From an uncultured Pirellulales bacterium (lineage in GTDB: Bacteria > Planctomycetota > Phycisphaerae > Sedimentisphaerales > Anaerobacaceae): DNA of 46,105 bases. The DNA lies in assembly GCA_964400665.1 (NCBI GenBank), contig CAYNVP010000001.1:1-46105 (forward strand), written 5' to 3'. Below the pieces are notes generated by a model, which worked only from the letters and a program-made list of their open reading frames with translations, was not told where the DNA came from and searched no databases. Below, piece after piece: positions 12,777 to 41,401 of the stretch. Every line of letters begins with the position of its first letter. Positions within the stretch are counted from its first letter, which is position 1. The position numbers and the translations under genes are program-made.

Positions 12777-12814
12777 GCACGCTTTGATAAACTCTGAATC
12801 GATTGGGAGGTGAA

Positions 12815-22947: not shown

Positions 22948-22963
22948 AGGAAAAAATTGCAAA

Positions 22964-23872: not shown

Positions 23873-23904
23873 TATGAGCAAGGGTAGAATGGGAAAAGAC
23901 CGCT

Positions 23905-24642: not shown

Positions 24643-25048
24643 TTTTTCAGTTTGTTTTTATGTATCCTTTGCGATTTATATCTACCTCAGGTGGTCTTTT
24701 AAAGGCATTTAAACGGTTAAAGCTAAGACATATATTTGTTATTTTTGAAAATGTTTTCAAGAAAAGTTAAAGGTGAAGTTTATATCTCCGTTTTAGAATA
24801 TGAGGTTTCCACAATAAATTGATTAACCGGCGGTATCAAGCTTTGGGCCAAATTGAACACAAGGAAGCAAGCATGGCCATTGATATTATCACCAATACCG
24901 AAGTCCCAGCTCGAAAAGTAAATTAATATTTTTTTTGGGGGAGAGTAATCTAATCGAAATATACTTTTACAAGCCATTGTCAGGCAATAACAGAAACAGA
25001 AAAAAATATTTACAAATAGCGAACTTATCCTTATCGGGAGATTAAGTT

Positions 25049-26398
25049 ATGGCAAGTAAACTGGAGAAGATTTTTGAAACATCCCCTGCATGGTTTAAGG
25101 ATTTGATGGCGACTATTGAAGGGACTCGATTGTATTACATGCGGCGTGCGGGAGTCTATAAAGAAAAAAGGGAATTATATCAACAACTGAGGACAAGAAG
25201 TTACCAGGAGCTTTTGGCTTATCAAAAAGAGAAATTTTCAGAAATTTTCTATGATGCCAAAGAAAAATCTCCTTATTACGCCCGGAAATATAAAAACATA
25301 AACGAACCCGATATTTCAAAAATACCGATCCTGGAGAAGGAGGAACTGCGGGCGAATATTGATCAATTTGTCATAGGGGACAGAAAGGAGTTATTAGAGT
25401 TTTATACCGGGGGGACGACAGGGAAAGGGATTAAGCTTTTTTTACGGCGGTCATCGTTGCAGGATCGAATCTCGATGTTAGATCTGTTCTGGAAGATGCA
25501 TGGGTATGAGTTTAGAGACAGATGTGCATGGTTTTCCGGACGTAACCTTGTGCATGAGGATGACGCTCGCAAAAATATTTTTTGGCGAACCAACTGGTAT
25601 CTTAACATAAGATATTATTCAACATTTCATCTGTCGCAGGATAATCTTGCTTATTATGTGGACAATATAAATAGGTACAAGCCGGTGTTCTTTTCAGGTT
25701 TTCCGTCAGCAGTTTATGAGCTTGCTCAGTACATGTCCATTAAGCGAATCAAGCCGGAGTTTCAGTTAAAAGGTATCTTTACGACTTCAGAGACGCTCTA
25801 TCCAACTTATAGAGAAACAATTGAGTCATTGTTTAATTGTAAAGTAAGAGATCAATACAGTTCAACGGAAGGCTCTCCGTGGATTATCGAATGTCCGCAC
25901 GGCAGGCGGCACTATGATCCCGCCAGCGGAATTATGGAAGTTGTTGATGAATCAGGTAATCCGGCAGAGGAGGGTGAGATTCTGGCAACAAGTTTTACGA
26001 TGAGAGAAGTTCCAATCATCAGGTATCGAATTGGTGACTATGTAAAAATGTCAGGGCAGATCGGGTGTTCCTGCGGCTGGGATACCCCGATAGTTGATAA
26101 AATTGAAGGTCGAAAAATGGATTACATTGAAATTCCAGGTCGCGGAAAAATATGGTGTTCTCAGATAGGTGATTGCGTCAAAGGTGTCAATTCGGTAATT
26201 AGTTTTCAGGTTGAGCTTCTTGATAATAATAGGGTGAAAATCTATATAATAGCTAACCGTGATGATTTCGAGAAGAAAGATAAGGAGAAATTTCTCAAGA
26301 ATTTTAGAGAAAGAGCAGGGGATGTTCCAATAGAAATCGTTTATGTTAACCGACTTGAGAAGAGTAAAAGTGGGAAGCACAGTGTTATCAAGCAATAA
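25049..26398 (+). CDS. CapK / phenylacetate-CoA-ligase-like (F390-synthetase-type) adenylate-forming enzyme
   Basis: YTGGTTGKG motif, a 449-aa length and an architecture typical of the PaaK/CapK family found in capsule loci. Confidence 0.7.
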   Translation: MASKLEKIFETSPAWFKDLMATIEGTRLYYMRRAGVYKEKRELYQQLRTRSYQELLAYQKEKFSEIFYDAKEKSPYYARKYKNINEPDISKIPILEKEELRANIDQFVIGDRKELLEFYTGGTTGKGIKLFLRRSSLQDRISMLDLFWKMHGYEFRDRCAWFSGRNLVHEDDARKNIFWRTNWYLNIRYYSTFHLSQDNLAYYVDNINRYKPVFFSGFPSAVYELAQYMSIKRIKPEFQLKGIFTTSETLYPTYRETIESLFNCKVRDQYSSTEGSPWIIECPHGRRHYDPASGIMEVVDESGNPAEEGEILATSFTMREVPIIRYRIGDYVKMSGQIGCSCGWDTPIVDKIEGRKMDYIEIPGRGKIWCSQIGDCVKGVNSVISFQVELLDNNRVKIYIIANRDDFEKKDKEKFLKNFRERAGDVPIEIVYVNRLEKSKSGKHSVIKQ

Positions 26399-27566
26399 AA
26401 AACGACTATGTGTGATTTCTGCAATTGATGTCACCTTTAAGGTTCTTCTGATAGCTCAGTTAAAGGCTGCAATGAAAGAAGGGTATACGGTGTACGGGGT
26501 CTGTACCCGGGGGGAGAAGTTTGAATGGCTTGAAAACGAAGGTGTTCATATGAAGGCCATTACGATTAAAAGAAGGATCAGCCCGTTTAGCGACTTGATT
26601 ACCCTGTGGAAACTGTTTCGATTTTTTCGGAAAGAAAGAATAGATATTGTTCACACTCATACACCGAAGTGTAGTTTGTTGGGTCAGTTGGCGGCAAAAT
26701 TGGCTGGTGTACCTGTTGTAATAAACACCGTTCACGGTTTTTATTTTCATGATAATATGAAGCCTCTTACAAAATGGTTTTACATTGCAATGGAATGGAC
26801 TGCTGGTAAATGTTCTACAATGATTCTCAGTCAGAATCCAGAAGATATTGATACGGCAATAAAGCTGGGCATCTGTAATCCTGATAAAATCAGAATACTC
26901 GGCAACGGCGTCGATCTGGCTAAATTTAATCCGAACGGATTCAATGAAAATTTCAAGGCAGAAAAGCGCAAAGAGGTCGGCCTGCCCGTCGATGCTGTTG
27001 TAATTGGAATTATTGGTAGATTAGTTAAAGAAAAAGGTTTTCTTGAATTATTCGAAGCTTTCAAAGAAATTATAAAAGAGCATAATGATGTCTGGCTTAT
27101 GGTAATCGGGCCGGAAGAACCTGAAAAGACCGATAGAATTTCTGCCGATACTTTCAAACAATATGACATAGAAAACAGAACGATATATTTGGGCGCCAGA
27201 GACGATATTCCTGAGTTATTAGCCTGTTGTGATATATATGCCTTGCCATCGTGGCGGGAGGGTTTTCCCCGCTCGGCCATTGAAGCAGCGGCGATGGGAT
27301 TACCCATAGTCACCACGGATATTCGCGGGTGTCGTCAAGTTGTTGAAGATGGCGTGAACGGATTTTTAACACCTGTACATGACATGGAGAAGTTAAAAGA
27401 AGCAATAATGAAATTGATCAACGACAAAGAAATGAGAGTTCGAATGGGCAAGGCCGGATATCACAAATCCCGAAAAGAATTTGATGAAAAAAATATATGC
27501 AGGATAGTCATCGAGACCTATGAAAATGAATTAGCGGCAAAGAGAGCTGCTTTAAACCGAGAATAA
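26343..27566 (+). CDS. Glycosyltransferase family 4 (GT-B)
   Basis: EGFPRSAIEAAAMGLPIVTTDIRGCRQVV motif. The start is uncertain. The ATG at 26343 overlaps the upstream gene by 56 nt, and an in-frame GTG at 26412 is an alternative. Confidence 0.8.
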   Translation: MLTDLRRVKVGSTVLSSNKKRLCVISAIDVTFKVLLIAQLKAAMKEGYTVYGVCTRGEKFEWLENEGVHMKAITIKRRISPFSDLITLWKLFRFFRKERIDIVHTHTPKCSLLGQLAAKLAGVPVVINTVHGFYFHDNMKPLTKWFYIAMEWTAGKCSTMILSQNPEDIDTAIKLGICNPDKIRILGNGVDLAKFNPNGFNENFKAEKRKEVGLPVDAVVIGIIGRLVKEKGFLELFEAFKEIIKEHNDVWLMVIGPEEPEKTDRISADTFKQYDIENRTIYLGARDDIPELLACCDIYALPSWREGFPRSAIEAAAMGLPIVTTDIRGCRQVVEDGVNGFLTPVHDMEKLKEAIMKLINDKEMRVRMGKAGYHKSRKEFDEKNICRIVIETYENELAAKRAALNRE

Positions 27567-27598
27567 CAGACATTCTTGGAGGATATTAAAGTAGTATC

Positions 27599-28654
27599 AT
27601 GGCAAATTCGGATCACAAGAAGAGACATTCCATGTTATTGTTTATTGCCTGCTTTACAGTGGTAGTTTTTGTAATGCTTTTTGCCAATTGGCAATCTTTG
27701 CTTGTGAGAGAGGTCCGTTTTCAGCAGAACAATGGCGTTGCTTACCTGTTTACACGCGGGAGTTATCTGGTTGCGGTCTGTCACGACGGCAAGGTTTATG
27801 TGTGGGATTGGGACAATCTGTCAGCCAAGCCGGGAATTGTCGACGCGCAGTCCGATCAAGCCGCTTTGCTGGAGTCGGGTCGTGTGGTATCAGTCCGGCA
27901 GTCAAATGCAAGGAAGATTGTCGTATCAGAATTGGACGACGGAAAGGTGTATAAAGAAATACCTATTGCAGCTGAAGATAAACAGGTGCGCTTGGTAGTC
28001 AACCGCAGCGGCGAGACCGTGGTGGTTATGCTCGCCGATGCGAGCAGCGGGACAAGCAGCGGCGACCAGGAAGTGATGCTGTTGGATTGTGATGCTGGCC
28101 TGGTTCGTCCAATCGCTAATCTGGCGGAGGCGGCAGAGGACCGAATAATGGGTTTGGCTGTTTCGGATGATGGCGGCCTTGTCGTGCTGGCGGGTGAGAA
28201 AGACGGGCAAGGGTATGTAGTCCTGGTCAACATGGAACAAAAGCGAGCATCCTGGGCTCAAATATTGCCTGACCTGCAGAAAGTGCGCAGCACCGTTTTC
28301 TCCACGGATGGCAAAGTCATTTATATTAGAGGCACAGACAGCACCGTGCAGACACTGAACGCCGAGACCGGCAGTGTCATTAAGAAGTTACTGCCTGTTA
28401 AAGAAAATAGGAGCACTGCAGGCGACCAGAACGTTCAAACGCTGGCGACCAGTGACGACGGGCGTTTCATGGCAGCCAGCATTTCAAGTGCCGTTTATGT
28501 GTGGGATTGCAAAACACAGAAGCTTGTTTTCAGTAAAGGGCCGGGGCATAAGGTGGTCAGCGGGCTGACGTTTTCGCCGGATTCAAAATTTCTGGCGACA
28601 AGTGACACCAGACAGGGCGGCACAATCAAAATCTGGCGTGTTCCAAAACGCTGA
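27599..28654 (+). CDS. Membrane-anchored WD40 / beta-propeller repeat protein
   Basis: N-terminal TM segment LLFIACFTVVVFVMLFANW. Repeats end in VYVWDWDN, VYVWDCKT and GGTIKIWRV. Confidence 0.7.
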   Translation: MANSDHKKRHSMLLFIACFTVVVFVMLFANWQSLLVREVRFQQNNGVAYLFTRGSYLVAVCHDGKVYVWDWDNLSAKPGIVDAQSDQAALLESGRVVSVRQSNARKIVVSELDDGKVYKEIPIAAEDKQVRLVVNRSGETVVVMLADASSGTSSGDQEVMLLDCDAGLVRPIANLAEAAEDRIMGLAVSDDGGLVVLAGEKDGQGYVVLVNMEQKRASWAQILPDLQKVRSTVFSTDGKVIYIRGTDSTVQTLNAETGSVIKKLLPVKENRSTAGDQNVQTLATSDDGRFMAASISSAVYVWDCKTQKLVFSKGPGHKVVSGLTFSPDSKFLATSDTRQGGTIKIWRVPKR

Positions 28655-28671
28655 TTGGCTGCGGGACGTAA

Positions 28672-29316
28672 ATGGACGGGACAATTCAGCATTTTGTAAA
28701 GCGCACAATCGATGTTATTGCAAGCATCGTGGGACTGGTAGTACTAAGTCCTTTGATTGTAATACTGGCAGTGATAGTGCGTGTGAAACTCGGCTCGCCG
28801 GTATTGTTCAGGCAACAGCGTCCCGGGCTTGCCGGCAGGCCGTTTTGGCTTTTCAAATTTCGCACTATGACCGACCAGTGCAATGCAGCTGGCCGGTTGT
28901 TGCCGGACGAGCAGCGTCTGCCGGCGTTTGGGCATTTCCTGCGAAGCACGAGCTTGGATGAGCTGCCTGAGCTTTTCAACGTCTTAAAAGGTGATATGAG
29001 CATTGTCGGCCCCCGGCCGCTTATGCTGAAATACCTTGGCAGATATACGCCTGAGCAGGCCAGACGTCACGAGACCAAGCCCGGCATCACCGGCTGGGCG
29101 CAAATTAACGGTCGAAACGCAATCTCGTGGGAAGACAGGTTTAAGCTTGATGTCTGGTACGTTGACAACTGGAGCTTGTGGCTCGATTTGAAGATACTGG
29201 CCAGGACCATTATATTGGTGTTCAAAAGAGAAGGGATTACTCAACAGGGCAGAGCAACTATGGATGAGTTTATGGGGACACCTCAACCAACACAAAAGGA
29301 TCCGCCGAGATGCTGA
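28672..29316 (+). CDS. Small monotopic phosphoglycosyl transferase (PglC/WbaP-C-terminal-type sugar transferase), initiating enzyme
   Basis: KRTIDVIASIVGLVVLSPL re-entrant helix, LDELPELFNVLKGDMSIVGPRP and PGITGWAQINGR motifs. Confidence 0.9.
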   Translation: MDGTIQHFVKRTIDVIASIVGLVVLSPLIVILAVIVRVKLGSPVLFRQQRPGLAGRPFWLFKFRTMTDQCNAAGRLLPDEQRLPAFGHFLRSTSLDELPELFNVLKGDMSIVGPRPLMLKYLGRYTPEQARRHETKPGITGWAQINGRNAISWEDRFKLDVWYVDNWSLWLDLKILARTIILVFKREGITQQGRATMDEFMGTPQPTQKDPPRC

Positions 29317-30557
29317 CCTACGAGCAGATTAAAGATATCGAGTCGCGGTTCGGCTCGCCGTTTTATATCTTTGATGAAGCAGCTTTTGTGAAGAATTACG
29401 ACGATATAATGTCGGCATTCTCACGCAGGTACGAAAAATTTATATTGGCCTATTCCTATAAAACCAACTACATCCCCTATTTATGCAGGATTATCAAATC
29501 AAAGGGAGGATTTGCTGAAGTCGTGTCGCGGATGGAATATGACCTCGCCTTACGCATAGGTCAAGACCCAAAGAAAATCATCTTCAATGGACCTGTGAAA
29601 AGCTACGACGATATAGAGCTCACGCTAAAAAATGAAAGTATCGTTAATCTGGATTCGGAGTACGAGCTTGATTATGTACGAAGATACGCAGCCGACAATC
29701 CCGGCAAGAAGGTAAAGGTGGGGCTTAGGATAAACATCGATTTAACGGATGAAAATGGTGTGTCGCACTTGTATGAGGGTATGCGCGCGGGCAGATTCGG
29801 TTTTTCAACGGAGGGTGATAACATTGCAGGGATTATTTCGGAATTGAGCCGAGCAGACAATGTAACAATTAACTGTTTGCATGGGCATAGTTCTGCCTGG
29901 GACAGAAGCGTCTGGTGCTATGAAAAAATAACAAGAACGCTATGCGATATCGGCTCACGGTATACGCCGGAAACAGTCGAATACATCGACATCGGCGGGG
30001 GGATATACGGCTATATACCGCCTCAGATGAAGCGAGTGCAGACGCCCAATTTTGACGACTACGCCAAGGGCGTCTGCGATGTTTTGATGGGCAACCCCTG
30101 GTTTAAACGCCGCCGACCTTATCTTGTTCTTGAGCCGGGCGTTGCTATGGCCGCCAATACGATTAGCTACGTGACTAAGGTTGTCAGCGTCAAGACCATA
30201 AAAGGCCAGGTGTTCGTAACCGTGGACGGCAGCGCGTTTCATACCAAGCCCACCTTTCACAAGATAAATAATCCCAGCATCGTGATTAGCAAGGCCAACG
30301 GGGGACAGCGAGGTGTGTATAACGTGGTGGGCGCAACGTGTATGGAAAAGGATTACTTGCTGACGGATGTCGAAGGCGTTTTACCTAAGCGCGATGATTA
30401 TATCAAGATTGACAGCGTCGGGGCATATACGATTGTTCTTTCGCCGACATTTATACACGCTGCGCCTGCGATAGTGGTCGGGCAGGGCGGGCAGTATAAA
30501 CAAATCCGAAGGAAGCAGAACTTGATGGATATGTTCGGTTGCTACTCGTTCGATTGA
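29310..30557 (+). CDS. PLP-dependent decarboxylase, Orn/DAP/Arg decarboxylase family 2 (alanine-racemase fold)
   Basis: FGSPFYIFDE, YSYKTN (PLP lysine), IDIGGGIYG and CMEKDYL motifs. It overlaps the upstream gene by 7 nt. Confidence 0.8.
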   Translation: MLTYEQIKDIESRFGSPFYIFDEAAFVKNYDDIMSAFSRRYEKFILAYSYKTNYIPYLCRIIKSKGGFAEVVSRMEYDLALRIGQDPKKIIFNGPVKSYDDIELTLKNESIVNLDSEYELDYVRRYAADNPGKKVKVGLRINIDLTDENGVSHLYEGMRAGRFGFSTEGDNIAGIISELSRADNVTINCLHGHSSAWDRSVWCYEKITRTLCDIGSRYTPETVEYIDIGGGIYGYIPPQMKRVQTPNFDDYAKGVCDVLMGNPWFKRRRPYLVLEPGVAMAANTISYVTKVVSVKTIKGQVFVTVDGSAFHTKPTFHKINNPSIVISKANGGQRGVYNVVGATCMEKDYLLTDVEGVLPKRDDYIKIDSVGAYTIVLSPTFIHAAPAIVVGQGGQYKQIRRKQNLMDMFGCYSFD

Positions 30558-30558
30558 A

Positions 30559-31113
30559 ATGAGCCCATCGAGGAATCAGGAACAAATGAGAATAGTCGGG
30601 CAAAAGGTGGCGTTGCGAGAGATGGAAAAGGCCGACGTTGCGCACAAGGTCAAATGGTTTAACGACCCGGATGTCAACAAAACGCTGCTTATGGAGGAAA
30701 AGCTCGAACTGGACAAATCGCTTGAGTGGTTCGAGCAAACGAGAAACGACGCCTCGAGACGCGATTTTGTAATTGAAACGAGCGAAGGCAAGCCGATAGG
30801 CATTATAGCTTTGGTGCATATAAGCGATGTTCACAAGACGGCGGAGATTTATATTGTGATTGGCGAGAAGGATTACTGGGGTAAAGGCGTAATGCTCGAA
30901 GCCGAATCTCTCCTTATTGACTGGGCGTTCAACTTTTTGAAACTCGAAAAAATCTGGGCCGATGTTTACCCGAACAATATAGCCAGTATAATTACAATGA
31001 AAAAACTTGGTTTTCAAATCGAAGGAACTTTACGAAGAGAAAAAAAAATACGAGGCCTGAGAATCGACGTCATTCGCGTAGGCCTTCTAAGAGAAGAATT
31101 TAACCCGAGATGA
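30559..31113 (+). CDS. GNAT family N-acyltransferase (RimJ/PseH-like)
   Basis: The pattern LREMEKADVAHKVKWFNDPDVNKTL...WGKGV is typical of this GNAT subgroup. It starts 1 nt after the upstream stop. Confidence 0.7.
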   Translation: MSPSRNQEQMRIVGQKVALREMEKADVAHKVKWFNDPDVNKTLLMEEKLELDKSLEWFEQTRNDASRRDFVIETSEGKPIGIIALVHISDVHKTAEIYIVIGEKDYWGKGVMLEAESLLIDWAFNFLKLEKIWADVYPNNIASIITMKKLGFQIEGTLRREKKIRGLRIDVIRVGLLREEFNPR

Positions 31114-31505
31114 ACCTTCATCATATCGCCTATGTTTGTAAAAATGTGGAGGAAAAAGCCAGGTCGCTTTGCGAGCAGTTTGGCTTTAAAATAATATCCG
31201 AACCCGTTGTAGATGAATATCAGGGCGCTAAAATTCTGTTTGTTCAAACCGGGGACGGAACCAAAGTCGAGCTTCTTGAACCTTATGGAGAAAACAGCCC
31301 CGTCAGGAAACACCTGGATAAAGGCGGCGGACTATATCACTTCTGTTTCGAGGTCGAAGACCTCACGAAAACACTTGAAACAATAACGTGTGATAATAAA
31401 GCTTTCGTAGTCAGGCCGCCTGCGAAGGCGCCTGCGATGAAAAATAAAAAAGTCGCTTTTATCGTAACGGCGGAAAAAGACATTGTTGAATTTGTCGAAA
31501 AATGA
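31110..31505 (+). CDS. VOC-superfamily protein, methylmalonyl-CoA-epimerase-like
   Basis: LHHIAYVCKN and GGLYHFCFEVEDL metal-ligand segments. Length is 131 aa. ATGA overlap with the GNAT gene. Confidence 0.65.
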   Translation: MNLHHIAYVCKNVEEKARSLCEQFGFKIISEPVVDEYQGAKILFVQTGDGTKVELLEPYGENSPVRKHLDKGGGLYHFCFEVEDLTKTLETITCDNKAFVVRPPAKAPAMKNKKVAFIVTAEKDIVEFVEK

Positions 31506-31522
31506 CTTCGTTGAGCCGATAA

Positions 31523-33271
31523 ATGAGATTATCCGCGATTGCAAAAACTTTAAAATCAAACGGCTGGCTCGCCTTCAGGCGCATAGCCGAACAAATCAGT
31601 CAGGCGGTTCTCAATAAAACTGCCAAGAACAGCCATAAATTAAAAGTGGCTTTTGTCAGCTCGTATACGGTCGACCCTTTGATTGATTATCTTGTTGTAA
31701 AGGCAGCCGAAAATGATATTGCATTGGATATTTATAAAGGCGAATACGGCCAAATAAACCGGGAAATACTTGACTTTAAAAGCGGTCTTTATAAGTTCAA
31801 TCCGGATATTACAATTCTTGCGGCGGAGTCGGGCGGCATCGACGCAAATCCGGTCCTGGCTGCGGAACAGATAATTAAGCTGGCTCAGGTTTTTAAGGAC
31901 AATTCAAAAAATGTACTTGTTGTATGCACCTTTATTTCACCGCCTGCCTGGCCTTTGCATATCCTCGAAACAGAAACCGAAATATCCTGCCGTAATGCCA
32001 ATAATCTATTAAAGGAAAAATTTCAGGATGACCCACGGGTACAAGTGCTGGGTGTTGACGCTCTGGCGGCGTACTTTGGATACCGTAACGCGTTGTCGCC
32101 GGAAATGATGAATATGGCCAGGATACCCTTCAGCGAGCCGTTCCTTGAGCTGCTCTCGCTTAAAGTAATGTCCCTTATAAAAGCAAGATTGAACCTGATA
32201 AAGAAATGCCTCGTGCTGGATTGCGACAATACGCTTTGGGGCGGCATTATCGGCGAAGACGGCATCGACGGGATAACCCTCGGGCCGGATTGGCCGGGAC
32301 GCGAATACGTTAATTTCCAAAAAGCAGTCCTCGAGCTCTATCAGCAGGGCGTCATTCTGGCGATTAACAGTAAGAATAACGAGCAGGACGTGATGCAGGT
32401 CCTGCGGGAACACCCGCATATGATACTTAAGGAAGAGCATTTCGCGTCCATCATTGTGAACTGGGACCCCAAGCCGCAAAATATGGTCAAACTTGCCGAC
32501 CAGATGAATATCGGTCTGGACAGTTTGGTTTTTGTCGATGACAATCCGGCCGAACGGCAGCTTATGCGCCAGATGCAGCCGCAGGTCGAGGTCCTGGAAA
32601 TGCCGGACAATCCCGCCTTGTTTGAAAAAACGCTTAGGGAAACGTCCTTTTTCGCAAAGGCATCTTTGACCGAAGAGGATAAAAAACGAGGCGAGATTTA
32701 TGCCGCCCAGCGCAAGCGAAAGGAGCTGCAAAAAAGCTTCGTATCATTAGATGATTTCCTGAAGTCCCTCGAGATGGTTTGTTCGATTCGGCTGGCAGAG
32801 GAAAAAGATACAAAACGGGCCGCCCAGCTAACCCAGCGAACGAATCAGTTCAATCTGACAACTCGCCGCTATAGCGAAGCGGATATCACGGGCTTATTGG
32901 CAAATCCTGATTGGCGGATTTATGTTCTTGGGTTGAAAGACAAGTTCGGCGATAATGGGACGGTTGGACTGGCTTTAGTGGAGACGGGGGCGAAGTTTTG
33001 GCGCGTGGATACTTTCTTAATGAGCTGCCGGGTTATAGGCAGACAGGTTGAAGACGCGCTGGTGGACCGGATATGCCGGGATGCAATCGAAACCGGCTGC
33101 GTTAAAGTCGCCGCGGAATACATTCCCACGGCCAAAAATAATCCGGCGGCTGATTTCTGGGACAAAAGCGGTTTCAGGAAATTGGCGTCTGAGAAAAATG
33201 CCGCCTGCTACGAGATGCTTTTGAAAGAATATAAACCGAAGACCCTGAAATATCTTGACTGGAGAAGGTAA
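31523..33271 (+). CDS. FkbH-like HAD-IIIC phosphatase / acyl-loading enzyme
   Basis: The HAD motif I LDCDNTLWGG is present. So is the C-terminal FkbH-type segment FLMSCRVIGRQVE, which carries the conserved Cys. Length is 582 aa. Confidence 0.8.
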   Translation: MRLSAIAKTLKSNGWLAFRRIAEQISQAVLNKTAKNSHKLKVAFVSSYTVDPLIDYLVVKAAENDIALDIYKGEYGQINREILDFKSGLYKFNPDITILAAESGGIDANPVLAAEQIIKLAQVFKDNSKNVLVVCTFISPPAWPLHILETETEISCRNANNLLKEKFQDDPRVQVLGVDALAAYFGYRNALSPEMMNMARIPFSEPFLELLSLKVMSLIKARLNLIKKCLVLDCDNTLWGGIIGEDGIDGITLGPDWPGREYVNFQKAVLELYQQGVILAINSKNNEQDVMQVLREHPHMILKEEHFASIIVNWDPKPQNMVKLADQMNIGLDSLVFVDDNPAERQLMRQMQPQVEVLEMPDNPALFEKTLRETSFFAKASLTEEDKKRGEIYAAQRKRKELQKSFVSLDDFLKSLEMVCSIRLAEEKDTKRAAQLTQRTNQFNLTTRRYSEADITGLLANPDWRIYVLGLKDKFGDNGTVGLALVETGAKFWRVDTFLMSCRVIGRQVEDALVDRICRDAIETGCVKVAAEYIPTAKNNPAADFWDKSGFRKLASEKNAACYEMLLKEYKPKTLKYLDWRR

Positions 33272-34120
33272 ATGGAATCCAAAATACAGCAAAAATGTGT
33301 GGCTTGTGAAAGCACGCAAAATATTCCGATTAATCTCAAATCCGGCTATGAAGGAAGAAAATGCCGGAATTGCAATCTTGTATGGGCGGTAAACGCTCTG
33401 GGCACAAAACAATTATATGATTCAGCGTATGATAAAAACTCAGAATGGTTTGTCTGGCAAAATTACATAAACGCCCATCAAAAAGTGAAATCGACACAAC
33501 GGGCTTCGCTTAACTGGTCTGAAAATTATTTTTTGAAAAAAATTAAACCCTTCGGCTCAAAGAATCTTCTTGAGATAGGATGCAGTGTCGGCAGGTTTCT
33601 TTTTGGATGCAGGGATAACGGCTGGCAAATCCATGGTTTAGATATCAGCAGTAAAGCAATTGAGATGTCTAAAAATCTTTTGCCGGGCGGTGATTATCAG
33701 ATCGGAACTGTCGAAGAGTCAAAGTGGCCGGAAGAAAGTTTTGAAGCAATCACATGCTGGGAAGTGATAGAACATGTAAGCGACCCTTTTATTTTTGTAA
33801 GTAAAGTGAAAGAATTGCTTGTGAAGAACGGTTTTTTCGCTTTCAGCACGCCTGACTGGGATAACTGGATTATTCGTAAACATTCCCAGAAAAATTACTG
33901 GCCGCCTTACCATAACTGGTTTTTCAGCGAAAAAAATATTAATGCGCTGCTTGGGAGGGCCGGCTTAAAAATAATAGAAATAAAACGACGTCCTTTCCCG
34001 TGGTCTGAGACCTGGTGGCCGCGCTGGCGGAGAGTTTTATCCTTACCATGGCTTGTTTATAAGGGTGTGATTTTAGGCCAGGGAGGAGGGAGAATTACTG
34101 TCTTGGCGAAAAAATCATAA
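33272..34120 (+). CDS. Class I SAM-dependent methyltransferase with an N-terminal Cys4 zinc-ribbon
   Basis: CVACES...CRNCNL followed by motif I LLEIGCSVGRFL. The ATG directly abuts the FkbH-like TAA. Confidence 0.7.
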   Translation: MESKIQQKCVACESTQNIPINLKSGYEGRKCRNCNLVWAVNALGTKQLYDSAYDKNSEWFVWQNYINAHQKVKSTQRASLNWSENYFLKKIKPFGSKNLLEIGCSVGRFLFGCRDNGWQIHGLDISSKAIEMSKNLLPGGDYQIGTVEESKWPEESFEAITCWEVIEHVSDPFIFVSKVKELLVKNGFFAFSTPDWDNWIIRKHSQKNYWPPYHNWFFSEKNINALLGRAGLKIIEIKRRPFPWSETWWPRWRRVLSLPWLVYKGVILGQGGGRITVLAKKS

Positions 34121-34142
34121 TCGCACGTTATTACGGTTATAT

Positions 34143-34373
34143 ATGTATAAGCAATTAGAGAAAATATTCCACCAGGCGTTCGGCGTCGATAAAGTCGACG
34201 AGTCAATGTCAATAAATAACGTCACGGGCTGGGACTCGATGGCCCACGTGGGATTGATTCTTTCGCTGCAGAAGGAATTCAAAGTGTCCATCTCCCCTGC
34301 GGATGCAATAAATTTGACCAGCGTAAAAGATATCATCCGGTATCTGATGAATCGAGGAGTTCCGCAGGAGTAA
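34143..34373 (+). CDS. Acyl carrier protein
   Basis: 76 aa with GWDSMAHVGLILSL, where the DS motif carries the phosphopantetheine serine. Confidence 0.75.
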   Translation: MYKQLEKIFHQAFGVDKVDESMSINNVTGWDSMAHVGLILSLQKEFKVSISPADAINLTSVKDIIRYLMNRGVPQE

Positions 34374-34437
34374 TTGATTGAAGCCCTCGACTAACCTTTC
34401 CGGCAACACAACAACAAATTTTTTATAGCGGGGAATT

Positions 34438-35748
34438 ATGATTGACCGAGAAAAACGGCCTGATGCCGGCGATAAGATAAAGACCGTTGCTGTTCTCGGC
34501 GCAAGCGGTACCATAGGAAGTCTTGCGGGTGGGCTGATTGCGCAAAACGGCCTTAAAGTTTATTTTCTGAGCCGCACTAAGGAGGGTTCTGAGCGAGGCC
34601 TGCAAAAAGCGATAGCACAAGCGCGTTCGGAAATGATAGCACATAACGTCGTATGCGGGGACTATGAGCGGCTGTTTGCCGATGCCCTCGCCGAGGCGGA
34701 CTGGGTAGTCGAGGCGATCGCCGAAGATGTCGGCATAAAACAGAAGATGCACGAACAGGTCGAGGTGTATAGAAAGCCGCACGCAATAGTCAGCTCAACA
34801 ACGTCGAGTTTGCCGTTGTCAACGCTGGTGCAGGGACGCAACGAGGATTTCAAAAGGCATTTTCTTTCGACTCACTTTTACAATCCGCCGGGTCGATTGC
34901 CCGCCTGCGAGCTGACAGGGATTGAACAAACACAGCCGGACGTTGTGGATTTTATGCGGCATTTTCTCACAAAGCGGCTAAGGCGCGTTGTTATACCCGT
35001 GAAGAATATTGCCGGCTTTGCCGGAAATCGAATTGCGTTTTTGCTTTTCAGTCGGATTACTTCACTGGCCCGTGAATTCGGCGTGGAGATGATGGACTAC
35101 CTCATTGGGCCATATACAGGCCGGCTGATGCCGCCCCTGGCCACCCTCGATTTGGTCGGATTGGACATCCACAAGGCAATTATCAGCAGCCTGGATGCAA
35201 ATACCAGCGACCCGATGCACAACTGGCTGTCGGTGCCCGGTTACATCAATACGATGATTCAAAGAAATCTGTTGGGCAAAAAGACGGGGGGCGGTTTCTA
35301 CAAGAAGCTTGAGAGCGGCAAATGCGTGTTCCTGGACCCTGTTAGCTGCGATTATATACCTGCCATAGAGCCGCATGTGGCGTTCGTTGAAAAAGCAAAA
35401 CACTTCATTCGTATGGGGATGTATAAGAAGGCCTTTGAGACAATACTGTCTGCCCAGGGAAAAGAGGCAGAGGTCGTTAAGGATATCCTGTGCGCGTATG
35501 TTGCATATTCGTATTCTCTCATAGGAGAGGTTACAGACAGCCGGATTGGTATCGATGGAATCGACAAGGTAATGTCTTATGGATTTCACTGGGCGGCCCC
35601 GAGCGTGATTGTGGAGATGCTCGGCGGCTGCAAAACAGCAGCTAAATTGCTTGCCGAGAGAAAATTGCCCGTCCCGCAAGGTCTGCTTAGCGACTTGAAA
35701 TCGGGCTTTAGAATTACCAACTCCGGCAAGTACTTCGTTGCCAAATAA
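34438..35748 (+). CDS. 3-hydroxyacyl-CoA dehydrogenase family protein (long form)
   Basis: VAVLGASGTIGS Rossmann motif, HFYNPP and the 3HCDH C-terminal domain pattern. Confidence 0.75.
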   Translation: MIDREKRPDAGDKIKTVAVLGASGTIGSLAGGLIAQNGLKVYFLSRTKEGSERGLQKAIAQARSEMIAHNVVCGDYERLFADALAEADWVVEAIAEDVGIKQKMHEQVEVYRKPHAIVSSTTSSLPLSTLVQGRNEDFKRHFLSTHFYNPPGRLPACELTGIEQTQPDVVDFMRHFLTKRLRRVVIPVKNIAGFAGNRIAFLLFSRITSLAREFGVEMMDYLIGPYTGRLMPPLATLDLVGLDIHKAIISSLDANTSDPMHNWLSVPGYINTMIQRNLLGKKTGGGFYKKLESGKCVFLDPVSCDYIPAIEPHVAFVEKAKHFIRMGMYKKAFETILSAQGKEAEVVKDILCAYVAYSYSLIGEVTDSRIGIDGIDKVMSYGFHWAAPSVIVEMLGGCKTAAKLLAERKLPVPQGLLSDLKSGFRITNSGKYFVAK

Positions 35749-35768
35749 ACGTATAAGAGAGTGAGCAG

Positions 35769-37007
35769 ATGAAAAACGAATCAGTATATATTCTCGGCGG
35801 TTACCAGACCGATTTTGCCCGTAACTGGGCAAGAGAAAATAAGCACATTGCGGCATTGATGCGAGAGGCATACCAGGGCAGCATCGAGGCGACTGGGATA
35901 GAACCCGGCGACATTAAGGCGGCGTTTATAGGTAACTTCGCCGGCGAGTTGTATTGTATGCAGGGGCATTTGGGGGCGTTTTTCGTGGATTTTGACCGTC
36001 GCTTTGTCGGGCTGCCCACAATGCGGTTCGAGGCCGCCTGCGCCGCCAGCGCGGTGGCCGCGGCGGCAGCAATGGCACACATTAAGGCAGGCATTTATGA
36101 CCTGATATGTGTAATCGGCGTCGAGCTAATGAAAACGGCCGATTCGGCCAAAGGCGGCGATTACCTCGGAACAGCCGCCTGGTATGAAAAAGAGTGCGCG
36201 GGCGTGGAGTTCCCCTTTCCCAAGCTGTTCGGCAAATTAGGCGATGAATACGACAAGCGTTACGGCCTTGACAATCAACACTTGGCCCGTATTGCACAAA
36301 TCAACTATACCAACGCAAAAAATAACCCTAATGCCCAGACCCGTGACTGGTTTATGAGCTTCGAGCACGCCTGCTCAACGGGCAAATACAACTCTGTTGT
36401 CAGCGGTAGAATCAAGGTTACCGACTGCTCCCAGATAACAGATGGCGCTGTGTGCCTGTATCTTGCCTCCGAGGCGTATGCTGCCAAATATGCCAAACAA
36501 AGGGGGCTTAAGCTTGAAAATATCCCTCGAATTCTCGGCTGGGGGCATACAACAGCCCCAATCGAGTTTGCTGGAAAAGTTGCGGATTCCAAAGACGATG
36601 AGTATGTGCTGCCGATGACCCGAAAGGCGATAACAGACGCATACAGCAGGGCGGGCATAAAGGATTGCTGGGATTTGGATTTGATTGAGACACACGATTG
36701 TTTTACTACCTCGGAATATATGGCGATAGACCACTTTGGGCTTACCAAGCCGGGCCGGTCGTGGGAGGCAATCGAAAACGGCATAATCGAAATGGACGGC
36801 AAGCTGCCAATTAACCCTTCCGGCGGTCTTATCGGCTGCGGCCATCCCGTCGGCGCCACCGGTACAAGGCAATTACTGGACGCATATAAGCAGCTTACGG
36901 ACACCGCAGGCAATTATCAGATACCCGGCGCAAAAAAAGTCGCTACACTTAACATCGGCGGCACCGCAACAACAAACGTCTGCTTTATCGTGGGAGCCAA
37001 TGGCTGA
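35769..37007 (+). CDS. Thiolase-fold condensing enzyme (acetyl-CoA acetyltransferase / SCP-x-type thiolase-like)
   Basis: Nucleophile Cys in FEAACAASAVA, plus the C-terminal GCGHPVGATG and NIGGTATTN. Confidence 0.8.
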   Translation: MKNESVYILGGYQTDFARNWARENKHIAALMREAYQGSIEATGIEPGDIKAAFIGNFAGELYCMQGHLGAFFVDFDRRFVGLPTMRFEAACAASAVAAAAAMAHIKAGIYDLICVIGVELMKTADSAKGGDYLGTAAWYEKECAGVEFPFPKLFGKLGDEYDKRYGLDNQHLARIAQINYTNAKNNPNAQTRDWFMSFEHACSTGKYNSVVSGRIKVTDCSQITDGAVCLYLASEAYAAKYAKQRGLKLENIPRILGWGHTTAPIEFAGKVADSKDDEYVLPMTRKAITDAYSRAGIKDCWDLDLIETHDCFTTSEYMAIDHFGLTKPGRSWEAIENGIIEMDGKLPINPSGGLIGCGHPVGATGTRQLLDAYKQLTDTAGNYQIPGAKKVATLNIGGTATTNVCFIVGANG

Positions 37008-38892
37008 CACAATACCGAATGCCGATGAAGTCAGGATTACCACGTTATTGCCCGAACACGCAAGGGCCGTGGCAGAATTACACATATCCGGCATAAAAAC
37101 CGGCTTTATCAGCTCTTTAGGCCTTGACTTTGTGACTGCTCTTTACGAAGCAATAGCCAAAAGCACATACGGATATGGTTTTGTCGCAATTATGCACGGC
37201 AGGGTAGTCGGTTTCGCGTCCTTTGCCACGGACCTCGGCGGCCTGTACAAGTCTGTGATTCTCAAGAACGGCCTTCGATTCATCTTTTCACTGGCGCGCA
37301 AGATGATGTCGCCCAAGGTAGCCAGAAAGGCCCTTGAAACGCTGTTCTACCCAACGCGCATAAGAAATATGCAATTGCCCGCAGCGGAGTTTCTCTCGAT
37401 GGTAGTTTCAGCAGATGCCCGTCGAAAGGGTCTGGCGACCGAATTCATAAAGGTCGGCTTTGCCGAAGCCGCATCAAGAGGTATAGAAAAGCTCAAAATT
37501 CTTGCGGCGGTGGATATAAAGCCAATCAACAAGTTGTATGAGAAGCTGGGTTTTGAGCTTGTCGGGCAGATAGACAATCACGGTGTAATAAGCAATGTGT
37601 ACGTGGCGAGGACGGACCATTTTGATGTTGCCGGAGGGGAAACTCGAAGGACAGTTGCTAAAAACCAACGGTCACTCGCCGGGAACAAAGCTATTGCTGA
37701 AGGGCTTGGTAGTGTGTTTGTCACTTATGGATGGTGTCGCACAACATATGCTGTCGTTTTGTCCTTGGGCAGGAGAGGTATAGGCGTTCACGTCAGCGAC
37801 GCGTCATCGATCGCGATGTCCCGTTACTCACGATACTGCAAGTCATACACCAAGGTTCCTGACTTCTTTGTCGAGCCGGACAACTATTTCGAAGCAACCT
37901 GTGAGGCGCTAAGAAAAACGGACGCCCGGGTTTTACTGCCGTGCCACGAGGACGTGGGTATATTCTGCAGACGCAAAAAGGAATTGCCACAGGGAGTTCT
38001 GACGTCATTGCCGGATTGGGACAGTTACCGTGTGGCGGAGGATAAACTAAGTGTTCTGGACGTGGCTGCCAAGGCCGGCTGTCCTGCGCCGATGACCACA
38101 AAAGTCGAGTCCTGGGACCATCTTGAGGACCTGTCGAGGTCTTCGGAGTGGCCGATTGTGTTAAAAACGCACATAGGAAACAGCGCCAAAGGTGTGCGAA
38201 TCGCCCGCAATCGGGAAGAGCTTTTCGCCAAATACAAAGAACTTGTCGAAACGTTCCGTCTGCCTCAGGAAAGATGGCCTTTTTTGCAGGAGTTTTTGCC
38301 CGGGGACGCGGCGGGCGTATGTATGTTGTATCAGAACGGCCGGTGCGTGACCAGCTTTGCCGAGCAATACATAAGGTGCAAAGAGCCGGGGAAATTCGGG
38401 ACATCTACCCTCCGAGAACCGTTCGAAAATCCGCACCTTATAGCACGGGCCACTGCCGTAATGGACAGATTGAAATGGCACGGTGTGGCGCATATCGATT
38501 TCGTCGCAGACAAGAATGGTGATTTCAGATTGATAGAGGTCAACCCCCGCCTGTGGGGTGCCTTGGCGCTGTCTATGTTTTCGGGAGTCGATTTCCCCTA
38601 CCTGTGGTATCTGGCGGCGGTAGGAGAGTCCATCGAAGGATTGGCTGCCTCGAAATATCCGCCGATAAAATGCAGGTGGATAGTAGGCGATTGTCTGGCA
38701 TTTATGGAGCTTGTTAAGCGCGGCAAGCTGGCGGAGGCGATGCGGATTCTTGCCCCACAGCGAAAATGCTATCACGACGACTTTGTTTTATTAGATCCGC
38801 TGCCGTTTCCGTTCGAACTGACGGACTACGTGGCAAAATTCTTGAAGTCGGGCGGGTCAGTCAATCCGGTGACCGGGGGAATGGTGCGTTGA
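37000..38892 (+). CDS. Fusion protein with an N-terminal GNAT acyltransferase domain and a C-terminal ATP-grasp ligase domain
   Basis: The GNAT acyl-CoA motif DARRKGLATEFI...LYEKLGFE covers aa 1 to about 205. ATP-grasp features cover aa about 240-630 (EDKLSVLDVAAKAGCPAP, WPIVLKTHIGNSAKGVRI, HIDFVADKNGDFRLIEVNPR). It overlaps the thiolase gene by 8 nt. Confidence 0.75.
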   Translation: MADTIPNADEVRITTLLPEHARAVAELHISGIKTGFISSLGLDFVTALYEAIAKSTYGYGFVAIMHGRVVGFASFATDLGGLYKSVILKNGLRFIFSLARKMMSPKVARKALETLFYPTRIRNMQLPAAEFLSMVVSADARRKGLATEFIKVGFAEAASRGIEKLKILAAVDIKPINKLYEKLGFELVGQIDNHGVISNVYVARTDHFDVAGGETRRTVAKNQRSLAGNKAIAEGLGSVFVTYGWCRTTYAVVLSLGRRGIGVHVSDASSIAMSRYSRYCKSYTKVPDFFVEPDNYFEATCEALRKTDARVLLPCHEDVGIFCRRKKELPQGVLTSLPDWDSYRVAEDKLSVLDVAAKAGCPAPMTTKVESWDHLEDLSRSSEWPIVLKTHIGNSAKGVRIARNREELFAKYKELVETFRLPQERWPFLQEFLPGDAAGVCMLYQNGRCVTSFAEQYIRCKEPGKFGTSTLREPFENPHLIARATAVMDRLKWHGVAHIDFVADKNGDFRLIEVNPRLWGALALSMFSGVDFPYLWYLAAVGESIEGLAASKYPPIKCRWIVGDCLAFMELVKRGKLAEAMRILAPQRKCYHDDFVLLDPLPFPFELTDYVAKFLKSGGSVNPVTGGMVR

Positions 38893-40009: not shown

Positions 40010-40168
40010 CCATTTCTCCGGCACATTCTAAAAAGCACGGTTACACTTTATTGCCGGCGAGGCGATTTGTCCAGTCCGGTTACGTATTTTGGAAAACCCG
40101 GAGCTGTCTGGACAGTCTCAATTCTAACGCCTAAACTGTTGTGGGTTTGTGAAGGTCCTAAGCGTATG

Positions 40169-41401
40169 TATCGCAAAGCGTATAGCGTAACAACGATATT
40201 ACTGATGCTTCTTCTTAGCCGGCAACTGCCCGCGTTGGAGCCGAACGAGATTCTTGTGGTTGTCAACGGCGATATTTCATCGTCGGTGGAGCTTGGGCGG
40301 TACTACTGTCAACGGCGAGGCGTCCCCGAGGAAAATATTCTGGAGTTGTCTTTGGGCAAGACGCTCGCTGATTCAATAAGCAGGGATGAATATGATAATC
40401 TCATCGCCGGGCCGATTTACAAACGTTTGACCGAAATAAAACCGGGACAGACAATTCGATGTCTGCTGACGACATACGGTGTGCCCTACAGGGTCGGCCC
40501 GCGAGGACCGCTGAAAGACCAGCAGGAGCGCCTCAGGCAGCTTGAGGCGGCTGCCCTGAGATACGAGAAAAAGCTTACAGATATTACGGCAGACGCAGAA
40601 TCGGCGGGCGAACAAAGTAGAATCAAAAAAGAGCTGGCAAGGGTCCAGAGCCAGATTGACCGGATTTTGGGCAGGGAAACAGGGGCCAGTGTGGATAGTG
40701 AGTTATCGATGGTGCTGTTCGGGTCTTACGAATTATACCGATGGCAGCCGAACCAAATGAATAAAAACAACGGGTATCCGGAAGAGCTGATTTTGACGGT
40801 TATGGTTTGCCGGCTGGATGGCCCCACGCCGCAGATAGCCCAAGGCCTTGTTGATAAGGCAATTGCGGCGGAAAAAACGGGGCTGCACGGAATAGCTTAT
40901 ATCGATTCTCGCGGCATTGCCGACGACAAGCAGCCATATTCGATTGCGCACTTCGACCAGTCGTTGCGGGACCTCGCATTGCTGTTGCGTTTTCGCCCGA
41001 ATTTGGAGGTAAAAGAGGAGCGAACAGACAAACTTTTTGAGCCCGGCAGCTGCCCTCAAGCGGCGATTTATTGCGGGTGGTACAGCTTGAAGAAGTATGT
41101 TGATGCCTTTGATTTCGTTGACGGCGCGATTGGCTTTCACATTGCCAGCTTGGAGGCGGTGGACCTTCGGGACCCCAATAGCTCCCAGTGGTGTCCGGCG
41201 ATGCTTGTTGACGGGATTACCGCTACGCTCGGCGCCGTAGCCGAACCGTATTTACACGCCTTTCCCAATCCCGCCGATTTCTTTAACGAGTTGTTGAACG
41301 GCGAATGCCTTGTTGAGGCATTTTACCACACACAGCCGTTTTGCTCCTGGCAATTGGTCTTGATAGGCGACCCGCTTTATACGCCTTTTAAGAAGCCCTG
41401 A
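40169..41401 (+). CDS. Secreted conserved hypothetical protein. From memory it resembles the TIGR03790 family
   Basis: Signal peptide MYRKAYSVTTILLMLLLSRQLPA followed by EILVVVNGDISSSVELGRYYCQRRGVPEENIL, the characteristic opening of that family as I recall it. The ORF opens at the TTG at 40067. Confidence 0.45.
   Translation, partial: YRKAYSVTTILLMLLLSRQLPALEPNEILVVVNGDISSSVELGRYYCQRRGVPEENILELSLGKTLADSISRDEYDNLIAGPIYKRLTEIKPGQTIRCLLTTYGVPYRVGPRGPLKDQQERLRQLEAAALRYEKKLTDITADAESAGEQSRIKKELARVQSQIDRILGRETGASVDSELSMVLFGSYELYRWQPNQMNKNNGYPEELILTVMVCRLDGPTPQIAQGLVDKAIAAEKTGLHGIAYIDSRGIADDKQPYSIAHFDQSLRDLALLLRFRPNLEVKEERTDKLFEPGSCPQAAIYCGWYSLKKYVDAFDFVDGAIGFHIASLEAVDLRDPNSSQWCPAMLVDGITATLGAVAEPYLHAFPNPADFFNELLNGECLVEAFYHTQPFCSWQLVLIGDPLYTPFKKP

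Follow-up and report, generated by a model that had tools for sequence, protein, structure and literature searches.

An FkbH-like enzyme with a dedicated carrier protein and a 3-hydroxyacyl-CoA dehydrogenase-thiolase pair as two probable acyl-donor units in a planctomycete glycan operon

Some surface sugars of bacteria, for example the pseudaminic acid of Tannerella forsythia and Campylobacter jejuni, are known to carry glyceroyl or O-methylglyceroyl as N-acyl groups. The genes for glyceroyl-type sugar groups have been called "elusive" or "a major challenge" (PMC6120980, PMC5378307), and the candidate gene for the N-glyceroyl pseudaminic acid of T. forsythia "remains elusive" (PMC6120980). In C. 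jejuni, 2,3-di-O-methylglyceroyl acylates N5 of pseudaminic acid (PMC3068675), an FkbH-domain gene of the flagellar glycosylation locus (cj1302) lies next to cj1301, annotated as an epimerase, and those di-O-methylglyceroyl sugars are absent from a strain in which cj1302 is a pseudogene (PMC7099621). Our literature searches for FkbH together with glycan, polysaccharide or flagellin, and for cj1298-cj1302, returned the C. jejuni FlaGrab paper as the sole relevant one, and no experimental link of cj1302 to the glyceroyl modification was found in the literature searched. A further described setting of FkbH is the methoxymalonyl-/hydroxymalonyl-acyl carrier protein (ACP) cassettes of polyketide synthase (PKS) systems, whose composition and gene sizes are published (PMC3679948). 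Here, we analyzed an FkbH-like gene and its neighbours on a stretch of 46,105 nucleotides (contig CAYNVP010000001.1, positions 1 to 46,105, hereafter the window) from an uncultured planctomycete, a stretch that exemplifies FkbH-ACP chemistry within a glycan operon in a clean, compact form.

We consider it probable that two independent acyl-donor units, one for (O-methyl)glyceryl-ACP and one for 3-hydroxyacyl-CoA, abut in this operon and serve its GNAT acyltransferases. The region is not one shortened methoxymalonyl-ACP pathway. An earlier note, made from positions 31523-35748, had counted four of the five methoxymalonyl-ACP functions there, a count that is not supported: of the members of that pathway, only FkbH and the ACP were recovered in the 46-kb window, while FkbK, FkbI, FkbG and a PKS were not. 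The same note had left out the VOC, GNAT1 and thiolase genes, whose presence changes the interpretation. The genes of the two proposed units are the following:

31110-31505, plus strand: VOC-superfamily protein, methylmalonyl-CoA-epimerase-like (PF13669 65.6 bits; TIGR03081 65.8 bits, below cutoff).
31523-33271, plus strand: FkbH-like glyceryl transferase/phosphatase, long form, 582 aa (TIGR01686, TIGR01681, PF21211 FkbH_N).
33272-34120, plus strand: class I S-adenosylmethionine (SAM) methyltransferase, MT, 282 aa (PF13489 79 bits, PF08241, PF08242).
34143-34373, plus strand: dedicated ACP, 76 aa (PF00550 PP-binding, 30 bits, cutoff 20.8).
34438-35748, plus strand: divergent 3-hydroxyacyl-CoA dehydrogenase, 3HCDH, 436 aa (PF02737 101 bits, PF00725 41 bits).
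35769-37007, plus strand: SCP2-type thiolase (NF004936 600.9 bits, cutoff 375).

The four co-directional open reading frames (ORFs) within 31523-35748 (FkbH-like, MT, ACP and 3HCDH, all on the plus strand) are separated by gaps of 0 to 64 bp and belong to an unbroken array that covers at least 28672-38892, with gaps of -8 to +64 bp. The gene order around them is WD40, polyprenyl-phosphate sugar-phosphate transferase (PGT), pyridoxal phosphate (PLP)-dependent decarboxylase, GNAT1, VOC, FkbH, MT, ACP, 3HCDH, thiolase and GNAT2-ATP-grasp. A promoter and terminator scan over 27-40.2 kb gave counts at chance level and did not separate the ACP from the 3HCDH gene. Every gene has its nearest homologues in Planctomycetota metagenome-assembled genomes (MAGs) of Phycisphaerae and Sedimentisphaerales. 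The order recurs on three independent contigs (L011, L159 and L160), which excludes a chance juxtaposition of ORFs; the closest genome locus among the matches listed, L011 from a Sedimentisphaerales MAG (70-86% protein identity), repeats the order of the window except for the VOC gene, which it does not have. Pfam scans covered the window ORFs of ≥ 120 aa that were read as genes, and among these no acyl-CoA dehydrogenase, PKS or non-ribosomal peptide synthetase (NRPS) was found, as the earlier note had stated for an acyl-CoA dehydrogenase homologue and a ketosynthase megasynthase; the sole ketoacyl-synthase match of the window was a sub-threshold one (19 bits) inside the thiolase. An acyl-CoA dehydrogenase was likewise not seen in the related loci L001, L003, L159 and L160.

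The FkbH-like protein scored 333.9 bits against the TIGR01686 FkbH domain (cutoff 146.65) and 77 bits against the TIGR01681 HAD-IIIC profile, and consists of an FkbH_N domain (~aa 36-225), a HAD-IIIC domain (~aa 226-385, with D233/D235) and a C-terminal GNAT-fold domain (~aa 405-582, with C502). The two segments pointed out previously, the DxDxT-containing LDCDNTLWGG and the Cys-containing MSCRVIGR, are residues 232-241 and 500-507, respectively. The protein was aligned with seven others, namely a homologue at the ZmaN position of the zwittermicin cluster on a Bacillus thuringiensis plasmid, a Streptomyces FkbH from an S. canus plasmid with the canonical order 3HCDH-ACP-acyl-CoA dehydrogenase-FkbH, and long-form relatives from four phyla. 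D233, D235, S283, K317, D339, D340, S501, C502 and R503 were invariant in all eight sequences, and the same catalytic residues were invariant across 28 closer relatives. The proposal that a proper alignment might reveal a loss of catalytic residues was thus answered in favour of the enzyme, whose predicted catalytic set is intact. The equivalent of C502 is taken to be the catalytic Cys of OzmB. An AlphaFold2 (AF2) model (mean predicted local distance difference test, pLDDT, 86.9; predicted template modelling score, pTM, 0.81) matched PDB 3SLR in Foldseek with a template modelling (TM) score of 0.77 over the N-terminal and HAD parts, in addition to a sequence match with an E-value of 4e-44, and the C-terminal Cys502 domain was modelled as a GNAT fold with a TM score of ~0.75 to many GNATs.

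The ACP has its predicted phosphopantetheine site at Ser32 in GWDSM, which agrees with the 76-aa ACP with a DS serine described before, and clusters with ACPs that adjoin FkbH, mostly directly downstream of it. The MT carries an N-terminal Cys4 ribbon (C9-x2-C12 ... C31-x2-C34) and a SAM motif, EIGCSVG, both read from the sequence. It matched PF13489 and PF08241 and gave no PF01596 match in the Pfam scan, PF01596 being what we take to be the FkbG family, so the view that this methyltransferase with a zinc-ribbon N-terminus is not obviously FkbG-like stands. It is a rare protein, with 10 other homologues among 5.8 billion proteins. All three homologue loci that were read (L011, L159 and L160) have the order FkbH-MT-ACP, and four further MT homologues may share contigs with the closest FkbH homologues, as their contig sizes are equal. 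Most plausibly, the MT is an O-methyltransferase of the tethered glyceryl group, given its position between FkbH and ACP.

The VOC protein scored 80 bits against PDB 3HDP and 2QH0 and 40 bits against human MCEE. All four combinations of the MT and VOC genes exist in the lineage, i.e., neither (L003), VOC only (L001), MT only (L011) and both (window, L159 and L160), and the GC content at third codon positions of the VOC and MT genes (0.43 and 0.42) is lower than in the neighbouring genes (0.52-0.61), as expected for later insertions. Outside this lineage, ~15 of 80 loci of unrelated phyla among the matches listed have a VOC gene no more than about 1 kb from the long-form FkbH gene, and the order VOC-ACP-FkbH occurs on a Clostridium perfringens plasmid (L009).

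Based on these assignments, the first unit (VOC-FkbH-MT-ACP, 31110-34373) may work as follows. The HAD domain of the FkbH-like enzyme would take a phosphoglycerate donor, by analogy 1,3-bisphosphoglycerate, the glyceryl group would be held as a thioester on Cys502 of the GNAT-fold domain, and would then pass to the phosphopantetheine of the 76-aa ACP, so that the dedicated ACP would become glyceryl-S-ACP. The MT would O-methylate one hydroxyl of the glyceryl group. Methylmalonyl-CoA epimerase inverts the carbon alpha to the thioester, and by analogy we propose that the VOC protein may act as a C2 epimerase of glyceryl-S-ACP (D- to L-glyceryl).

The 3HCDH and thiolase genes appear to form a separate, conserved unit. 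Loci were gathered around relatives of FkbH and, separately, around relatives of the 3HCDH, and were scored for homologues of the window genes. A thiolase gene lies directly 3' of the 3HCDH gene in 36 of the 38 non-redundant loci whose sequence extends far enough downstream; of the 29 loci that extend far enough upstream, just 2 have FkbH and ACP genes 5' of the 3HCDH gene. The commonest arrangement around the 3HCDH is WD40-PGT-decarboxylase-GNAT1-3HCDH-thiolase with a carrier protein nowhere in the block (L092, L101, L104 and L140), while L091 has 3HCDH-thiolase-GNAT-ATP-grasp without PGT, decarboxylase or FkbH. Conversely, FkbH-ACP stands without 3HCDH and thiolase in L003 (GNAT1-FkbH-ACP-unknown), L160 (GNAT1-VOC-FkbH-MT-ACP-BNR) has no 3HCDH, and in L159 the thiolase gene lies 5' of the WD40 gene, away from the ACP. 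The translations retain the His/Glu dyad of the 3HCDH (His in THFYNP, Glu in ACELTG) and the catalytic motifs of the thiolase (Cys in EAACAAS, the HDCF loop in ETHDCF and GHP in GCGHP), which scored 185-188 bits against the SCP2-thiolases of PDB 3ZBG and 4BI9.

This distribution bears on the earlier reading of the 3HCDH as the FkbK equivalent, which would oxidize glyceryl-S-ACP to 2-hydroxy-3-oxopropionyl-S-ACP in a shortened methoxymalonyl-type pathway that decorates a glycan. FkbK and ZmaG are indeed 3HCDH-family enzymes, as is established knowledge and in line with the published cassette composition (PMC3679948), the 3HCDH gene directly follows the ACP gene in the window (64-bp gap) and in L001, L011, L095 and L116, and a 2026 preprint tentatively sees, in a strain of C. 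jejuni, a variant of the glyceroyl group in which one of the hydroxyls has been converted by oxidation into an aldehyde. However, the 3HCDH normally works where no ACP exists and so cannot be a dedicated glyceryl-ACP oxidase, and FkbH-(MT)-ACP in turn occurs without it or away from it. Furthermore, against a canonical FkbK-like protein (L007) the 3HCDH of the window scored 84 bits at 29% identity, and against an ordinary Hbd (9FBD) 91 bits; that FkbK-like protein is itself Hbd-like (254 bits against Hbd). Copies of the window's 3HCDH in loci without FkbH (up to 83% identity) are as close to it as those of FkbH loci (58-80%), the nearest of them even closer than most of the latter, and these identities show no separation that would indicate a specialisation of the 3HCDH in FkbH-containing loci. 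We therefore regard that reading as very improbable; the 3HCDH is, by sequence and neighbourhood, not an FkbK equivalent. With it, the 2-hydroxy-3-oxopropionyl option for the glycan substituent loses its basis, and from the note's proposal of a glycerate-derived thioester used as a glycan substituent the glyceryl and O-methylglyceryl forms remain. For annotation in general, a 3HCDH beside FkbH and ACP is not automatically an FkbK.

The contiguity of ACP, 3HCDH and thiolase in five loci could also be explained by a joint pathway, in which the thiolase condenses acetyl-CoA with the (O-methyl)glyceryl thioester, the 3-oxo product is reduced by the 3HCDH, and the glycan receives a C5 polyhydroxy acyl group (3,4,5-trihydroxypentanoyl type). 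Tetronate pathways are established to condense glyceryl-ACP with a ketoacyl partner, but they do so with FabH-like enzymes, unlike the SCP2-type CoA thiolase found here, and each unit is found alone far more often than both together, with the thiolase of L159 even encoded on the other side of the WD40 gene, apart from the ACP. A joint pathway is consequently improbable. Returning to two independent units, the second one (3HCDH-thiolase, 34438-37007) would act on CoA thioesters and make, for example, 3-hydroxybutyryl-CoA from acetyl-CoA; its family membership together with the neighbouring GNATs and deacetylases makes a 3-hydroxyacyl-CoA such as 3-hydroxybutyryl-CoA the most likely product. In other loci the pair adjoins various GNATs and DUF3473-type deacetylases, which fits the replacement of an N-acetyl by a hydroxyacyl group.

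The pair is not exclusive to polysaccharide operons: outside glycan loci, the 3HCDH gene was seen alone in L090 and with the thiolase gene in L097, next to glycoside hydrolases, or to a signal peptidase and isocitrate dehydrogenase. Two further sequences, P0121 and P0014, have a 3HCDH 91% and an FkbH 68% identical to those of the window; if they are from one contig (31450 bp, with equal length as the sole basis), this mismatch points to a mosaic evolution of the locus by unit exchange.

The genes on either side of the two units are the following:

28672-29316, plus strand: monotopic small PGT (PF02397 220.8 bits).
29310-30557, plus strand: PLP-dependent decarboxylase of the Orn/DAP/Arg fold (PF02784, PF00278).
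30559-31113, plus strand: GNAT1, an Acetyltransf_3 N-acyltransferase (PF13302 94 bits).
37000-38892, plus strand: GNAT2 (37000-~37650) fused to an ATP-grasp ligase (PF00583/PF13508, PF15632/PF02655).

PGT-decarboxylase-GNAT is conserved in L001, L003, L092, L101, L104, L159 and L160, and homologues of GNAT2/ATP-grasp, as one or two genes, follow the thiolase gene in L091, L104, L113, L119, L122 and L142. The GNAT1 gene lies directly 5' of VOC/FkbH in the window and directly 5' of the 3HCDH gene in FkbH-less loci; its product has SpeG polyamine N-acetyltransferases as nearest solved structures (E 2e-18) and is a candidate for the acyl transfer onto an amine in the glycan unit. The decarboxylase, which occurs with or without FkbH/ACP, is nearest to the diaminopimelate (DAP) decarboxylase 2P3E and the N-citrylornithine decarboxylase 7KH2 (110-112 bits). 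Taken together, decarboxylase, SpeG-like GNAT and ATP-grasp suggest an amide-linked N-acylated diamine substituent, and, speculatively, an amine side chain may serve as acceptor instead of an amino sugar. GNAT1 and GNAT2 would transfer the acyl groups of the two donors to amino groups, either in the repeat unit or in an amine side chain that the neighbouring PLP decarboxylase and ATP-grasp ligase would produce.

The same genes raise a different explanation, similar to butirosin biosynthesis (BtrJ/BtrI/BtrK), in which the ATP-grasp enzyme loads an amino acid on the ACP, the PLP decarboxylase acts on the carrier-bound group and FkbH is an accessory phosphatase. An ATP-grasp ligase and an ACP do share the operon, and the decarboxylase gives 84 bits against BtrK (2J66/7RU7), which acts as L-glutamyl-[BtrI ACP] decarboxylase, but this is less than its scores against the DAP and N-citrylornithine enzymes. 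Moreover, many ACP-less loci contain the decarboxylase together with GNAT1 and ATP-grasp, the ACP tracks FkbH and not the decarboxylase, and FkbH keeps its acyl-transfer Cys, all of which makes a butirosin-like route highly improbable.

The backbone itself, i.e., a WD40 beta-propeller protein carrying a hydrophobic segment at its N-terminus, PGT, Orn/DAP-fold decarboxylase, SpeG-like GNAT and ATP-grasp (27599-30557, 30559-31113 and 37000-38892), was observed as a constant set in L092, L101, L104, L140, L003 and L159. In planctomycete glycan loci, different acyl-donor units come and go while the PGT-decarboxylase-GNAT-ATP-grasp backbone stays fixed.

The whole array lies in a Wzx-type polysaccharide locus of ~30 kb, which spans ~10 kb to ~40 kb of the window and, according to profile matches, encodes a 4,6-dehydratase/epimerase, a Wzx flippase, glycosyltransferases and the PglC-type small PGT, as well as a MraY/WecA-family transferase on the other strand. 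Because the cassette lies inside this locus and the window has no acyl-CoA dehydrogenase or PKS, there is good support for a glycan, and not a polyketide, as the destination of the glycerate-derived thioester.

A PKS or NRPS encoded elsewhere in the genome could still be fed in trans by FkbH and the ACP, with their position in a glycan locus being incidental. It is established knowledge that the biochemically characterised members of the FkbH family all feed PKS/NRPS lines, and matches on Ralstonia and Rhodococcus plasmids are FkbH domains inside megasynthases. Nevertheless, the genes of the window sit within a tightly packed operon, between a GNAT and further acyl-transfer genes, and this placement is conserved in at least seven independent related loci. 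The relatives in other phyla also have glycan-type neighbours, as detailed below, and we give hardly any credence to a supply in trans.

A genome scan recovered at least 600 stretches with a long-form FkbH, of which 594 were confirmed; neighbours were scored in 80 loci of other lineages (L012-L089 among them), or in 84 loci for the ACP and megasynthase counts, and what follows refers to the matches listed. Long-form FkbH occurs in Acidobacteriota, Nitrospirota, Gemmatimonadota, Proteobacteria, the Candidate Phyla Radiation (CPR), Nitrososphaerales and others. A small ACP lies within 1.5 kb of FkbH in 39 of 84 loci, downstream of it in 35 of those, while a neighbour of megasynthase size (≥ 1200 aa) was present in just 2 of 84. 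The commonest neighbours other than ACPs were MaoC-SDR fusions (20 loci), MBOAT proteins (16) and hexapeptide acyltransferases (16), and others were sulfotransferases, GT4 glycosyltransferases, polysaccharide deacetylases and AsnB-type amidotransferases. These glycan-type neighbours and the scarcity of megasynthases indicate that FkbH-ACP in glycan-type loci is common.

Several observations from other lineages can be added. MBOAT and ACP beside FkbH recall the DltB/DltC arrangement for extracytoplasmic acylation. On Sinorhizobium meliloti pSymB (L008, 5340-11626), a VOC gene, an MBOAT gene, a gene of unknown type (438 aa), an FkbH-like ORF (687 aa) and a small ORF are flanked by IS21/Mu-type transposase genes, in keeping with the glycan-style pattern; none of the known polysaccharides could be tied to this unit. 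The exopolysaccharide (EPS) I cluster carries a 3-hydroxybutanoyl sugar, and the Ralstonia megaplasmid matches H5-H7 were considered as EPS I genes, a candidate that was rejected, as the FkbH domain lies in a 1188-aa protein followed by a 1470-aa protein, i.e., a megasynthase context. Similarly, the 298-aa gene after the ACP in L003 was compared with the WcbI-family acyltransferase after FkbH-ACP in Niveispirillum and showed no similarity to it.

From the wider survey, we propose that long-form FkbH and ACP constitute a widespread system for decorating cell-surface glycans with C3 hydroxy acids and act as donors to GNAT, MBOAT, hexapeptide or WcbI-type transferases, a generalisation for which we see the chances as evenly balanced. 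The variants of this decoration would comprise a plain glyceroyl group, an O-methylglyceroyl group where the zinc-ribbon MT is present and the other enantiomer where the VOC gene is present; MaoC and SDR could convert glyceryl-ACP to lactyl-ACP, which could give a lactyl variant. Natural variants with and without MT and VOC predict defined mass differences, and the hypothesis is therefore directly testable in vitro. If true, it supplies the missing genetic basis for the N-glyceroyl sugars of T. forsythia and the di-O-methylglyceroyl sugars of C. jejuni, and means that the carrier-protein chemistry of PKS extender units is used routinely in glycan tailoring by bacteria and archaea.

Several points weigh against two independent donor units serving the GNATs of the operon. 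The long-form FkbH proteins of glycan loci are biochemically uncharacterised throughout, and the assumption of 1,3-bisphosphoglycerate as the donor is carried over from short-form relatives associated with PKSs, which share only 29-34% identity. The usual substrate of GNATs is acyl-CoA and not acyl-ACP, and a dedicated ACP-dependent transferase was not identified in the window. GNAT1 itself shows no obvious specialisation, as its identity tracks that of the decarboxylase whether FkbH is present or absent; the pairing of either GNAT with a particular donor is conjectural. The link between the MT and the glyceryl group is one of position alone. The ACP gene is directly followed by the 3HCDH gene in five related loci, the window included, and some crosstalk between the units is possible. 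Lastly, the 3HCDH belongs to a divergent clade that is also present in the two non-glycan contexts mentioned above (L090 and L097), and the chain length of its hydroxyacyl product may differ from the C4 example given.

With regard to the surroundings, the window starts with housekeeping genes (topA, a release factor gene, pepA, folE and PTPS). Genes for a GFO/MocA oxidoreductase, a hexapeptide acetyltransferase and a DegT aminotransferase stand in a row at 11070-13915, resembling the WbpB/WbpD/WbpE route to 3-acetamido sugars; a WbpA-type 6-dehydrogenase was not seen. The following stretch (14000-28000) has a GC content of 0.38-0.45, compared with ~0.50-0.56 in its flanks, and contains Wzx, glycosyltransferases and two ~510-aa proteins without a family match (candidates for a polymerase or for membrane proteins). 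This stretch has the appearance of a variable core of the glycan locus that is subject to horizontal exchange. Within it, ORFs at 23905-24642 and 25049-26398 match PaaK/F390-synthetase-like adenylating enzymes in their N-terminal part (profile 4-105) and their C-terminal part (~160-400), respectively; they are ~400 bp apart and could represent one gene that was split or degraded, or else two partial genes. Beyond the glycan locus lie a TIGR03790-family protein (40067-41401, 249 bits) and a nitroreductase/DJ-1 fusion (42203-43501). LAB_N, nitroreductase-DJ-1 and NAD synthase genes also flank the locus in L003 and L091, which indicates a conserved chromosomal site for the glycan locus.

Compared with the methoxymalonyl-/hydroxymalonyl-ACP cassettes (FkbGHIJK of FK520, BafAI-AV of bafilomycin and ZmaD/E/G/N of zwittermicin), the locus shares the HAD Asp pair and the C-terminal Cys of FkbH, a small dedicated ACP and a SAM methyltransferase in the block. 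It differs in having no FkbI-type acyl-CoA dehydrogenase and no PKS, and in its polysaccharide operon context. Moreover, its FkbH is long (582 aa, with an extra N-terminal domain, vs. 341-367 aa in methoxymalonyl-type cassettes), its MT has 282 aa with a zinc ribbon and PF13489/PF08241 matches, while the O-methyltransferase of such a cassette has 221 aa (BafAV), and its divergent 436-aa 3HCDH travels with a thiolase and not with FkbH.

A structure is available for BF1531 of Bacteroides fragilis (PDB 3SLR), a long-form "HAD-IIIC family phosphatase" that shares the N-terminal and HAD architecture; BF1531-type long-form genes are of the same family, have an ACP downstream and are functionally uncharacterised. 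The partners of long-form FkbH elsewhere are MaoC and SDR, MBOAT, and hexapeptide or WcbI-like acyltransferases, and in the window they are GNAT, VOC and MT. With pairs of acetoacetyl-CoA thiolase and Hbd, the second unit has in common a thiolase with a full catalytic set beside a dehydrogenase with the His/Glu dyad. Its thiolase is nevertheless of the SCP2/HDCF type, its dehydrogenase is 140 aa longer and distant (91 bits), and pairs of this type are found in glycan loci beside GNATs and deacetylases, not in butyrate or polyhydroxybutyrate (PHB) metabolism.

The described relative that comes closest to the first unit is the cj1302 locus of C. jejuni, which, going by its published description, shares with the window an FkbH-domain gene beside an epimerase-type gene (cj1301-cj1302) in a glycan locus, and whose product is an O-methylated glyceroyl N-acyl group. 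The acceptors differ: in C. jejuni it is a nonulosonic acid on flagellin, while the window looks like a locus for a Wzx-dependent polysaccharide. No NeuB/PseI-type synthase and no CMP-sugar synthetase or transferase was found among the scanned window ORFs, and the 4,6-dehydratase scored 193 bits against LegB, below the cutoff of 475. The single MT of the window leads us to expect mono-methylation, as opposed to the di-O-methyl group of C. jejuni. A GNAT is encoded by cj1298, an ACP by cj1299 and a SAM methyltransferase by cj1300; with these, the C. jejuni locus would match the GNAT-VOC-FkbH-MT-ACP set of the window.

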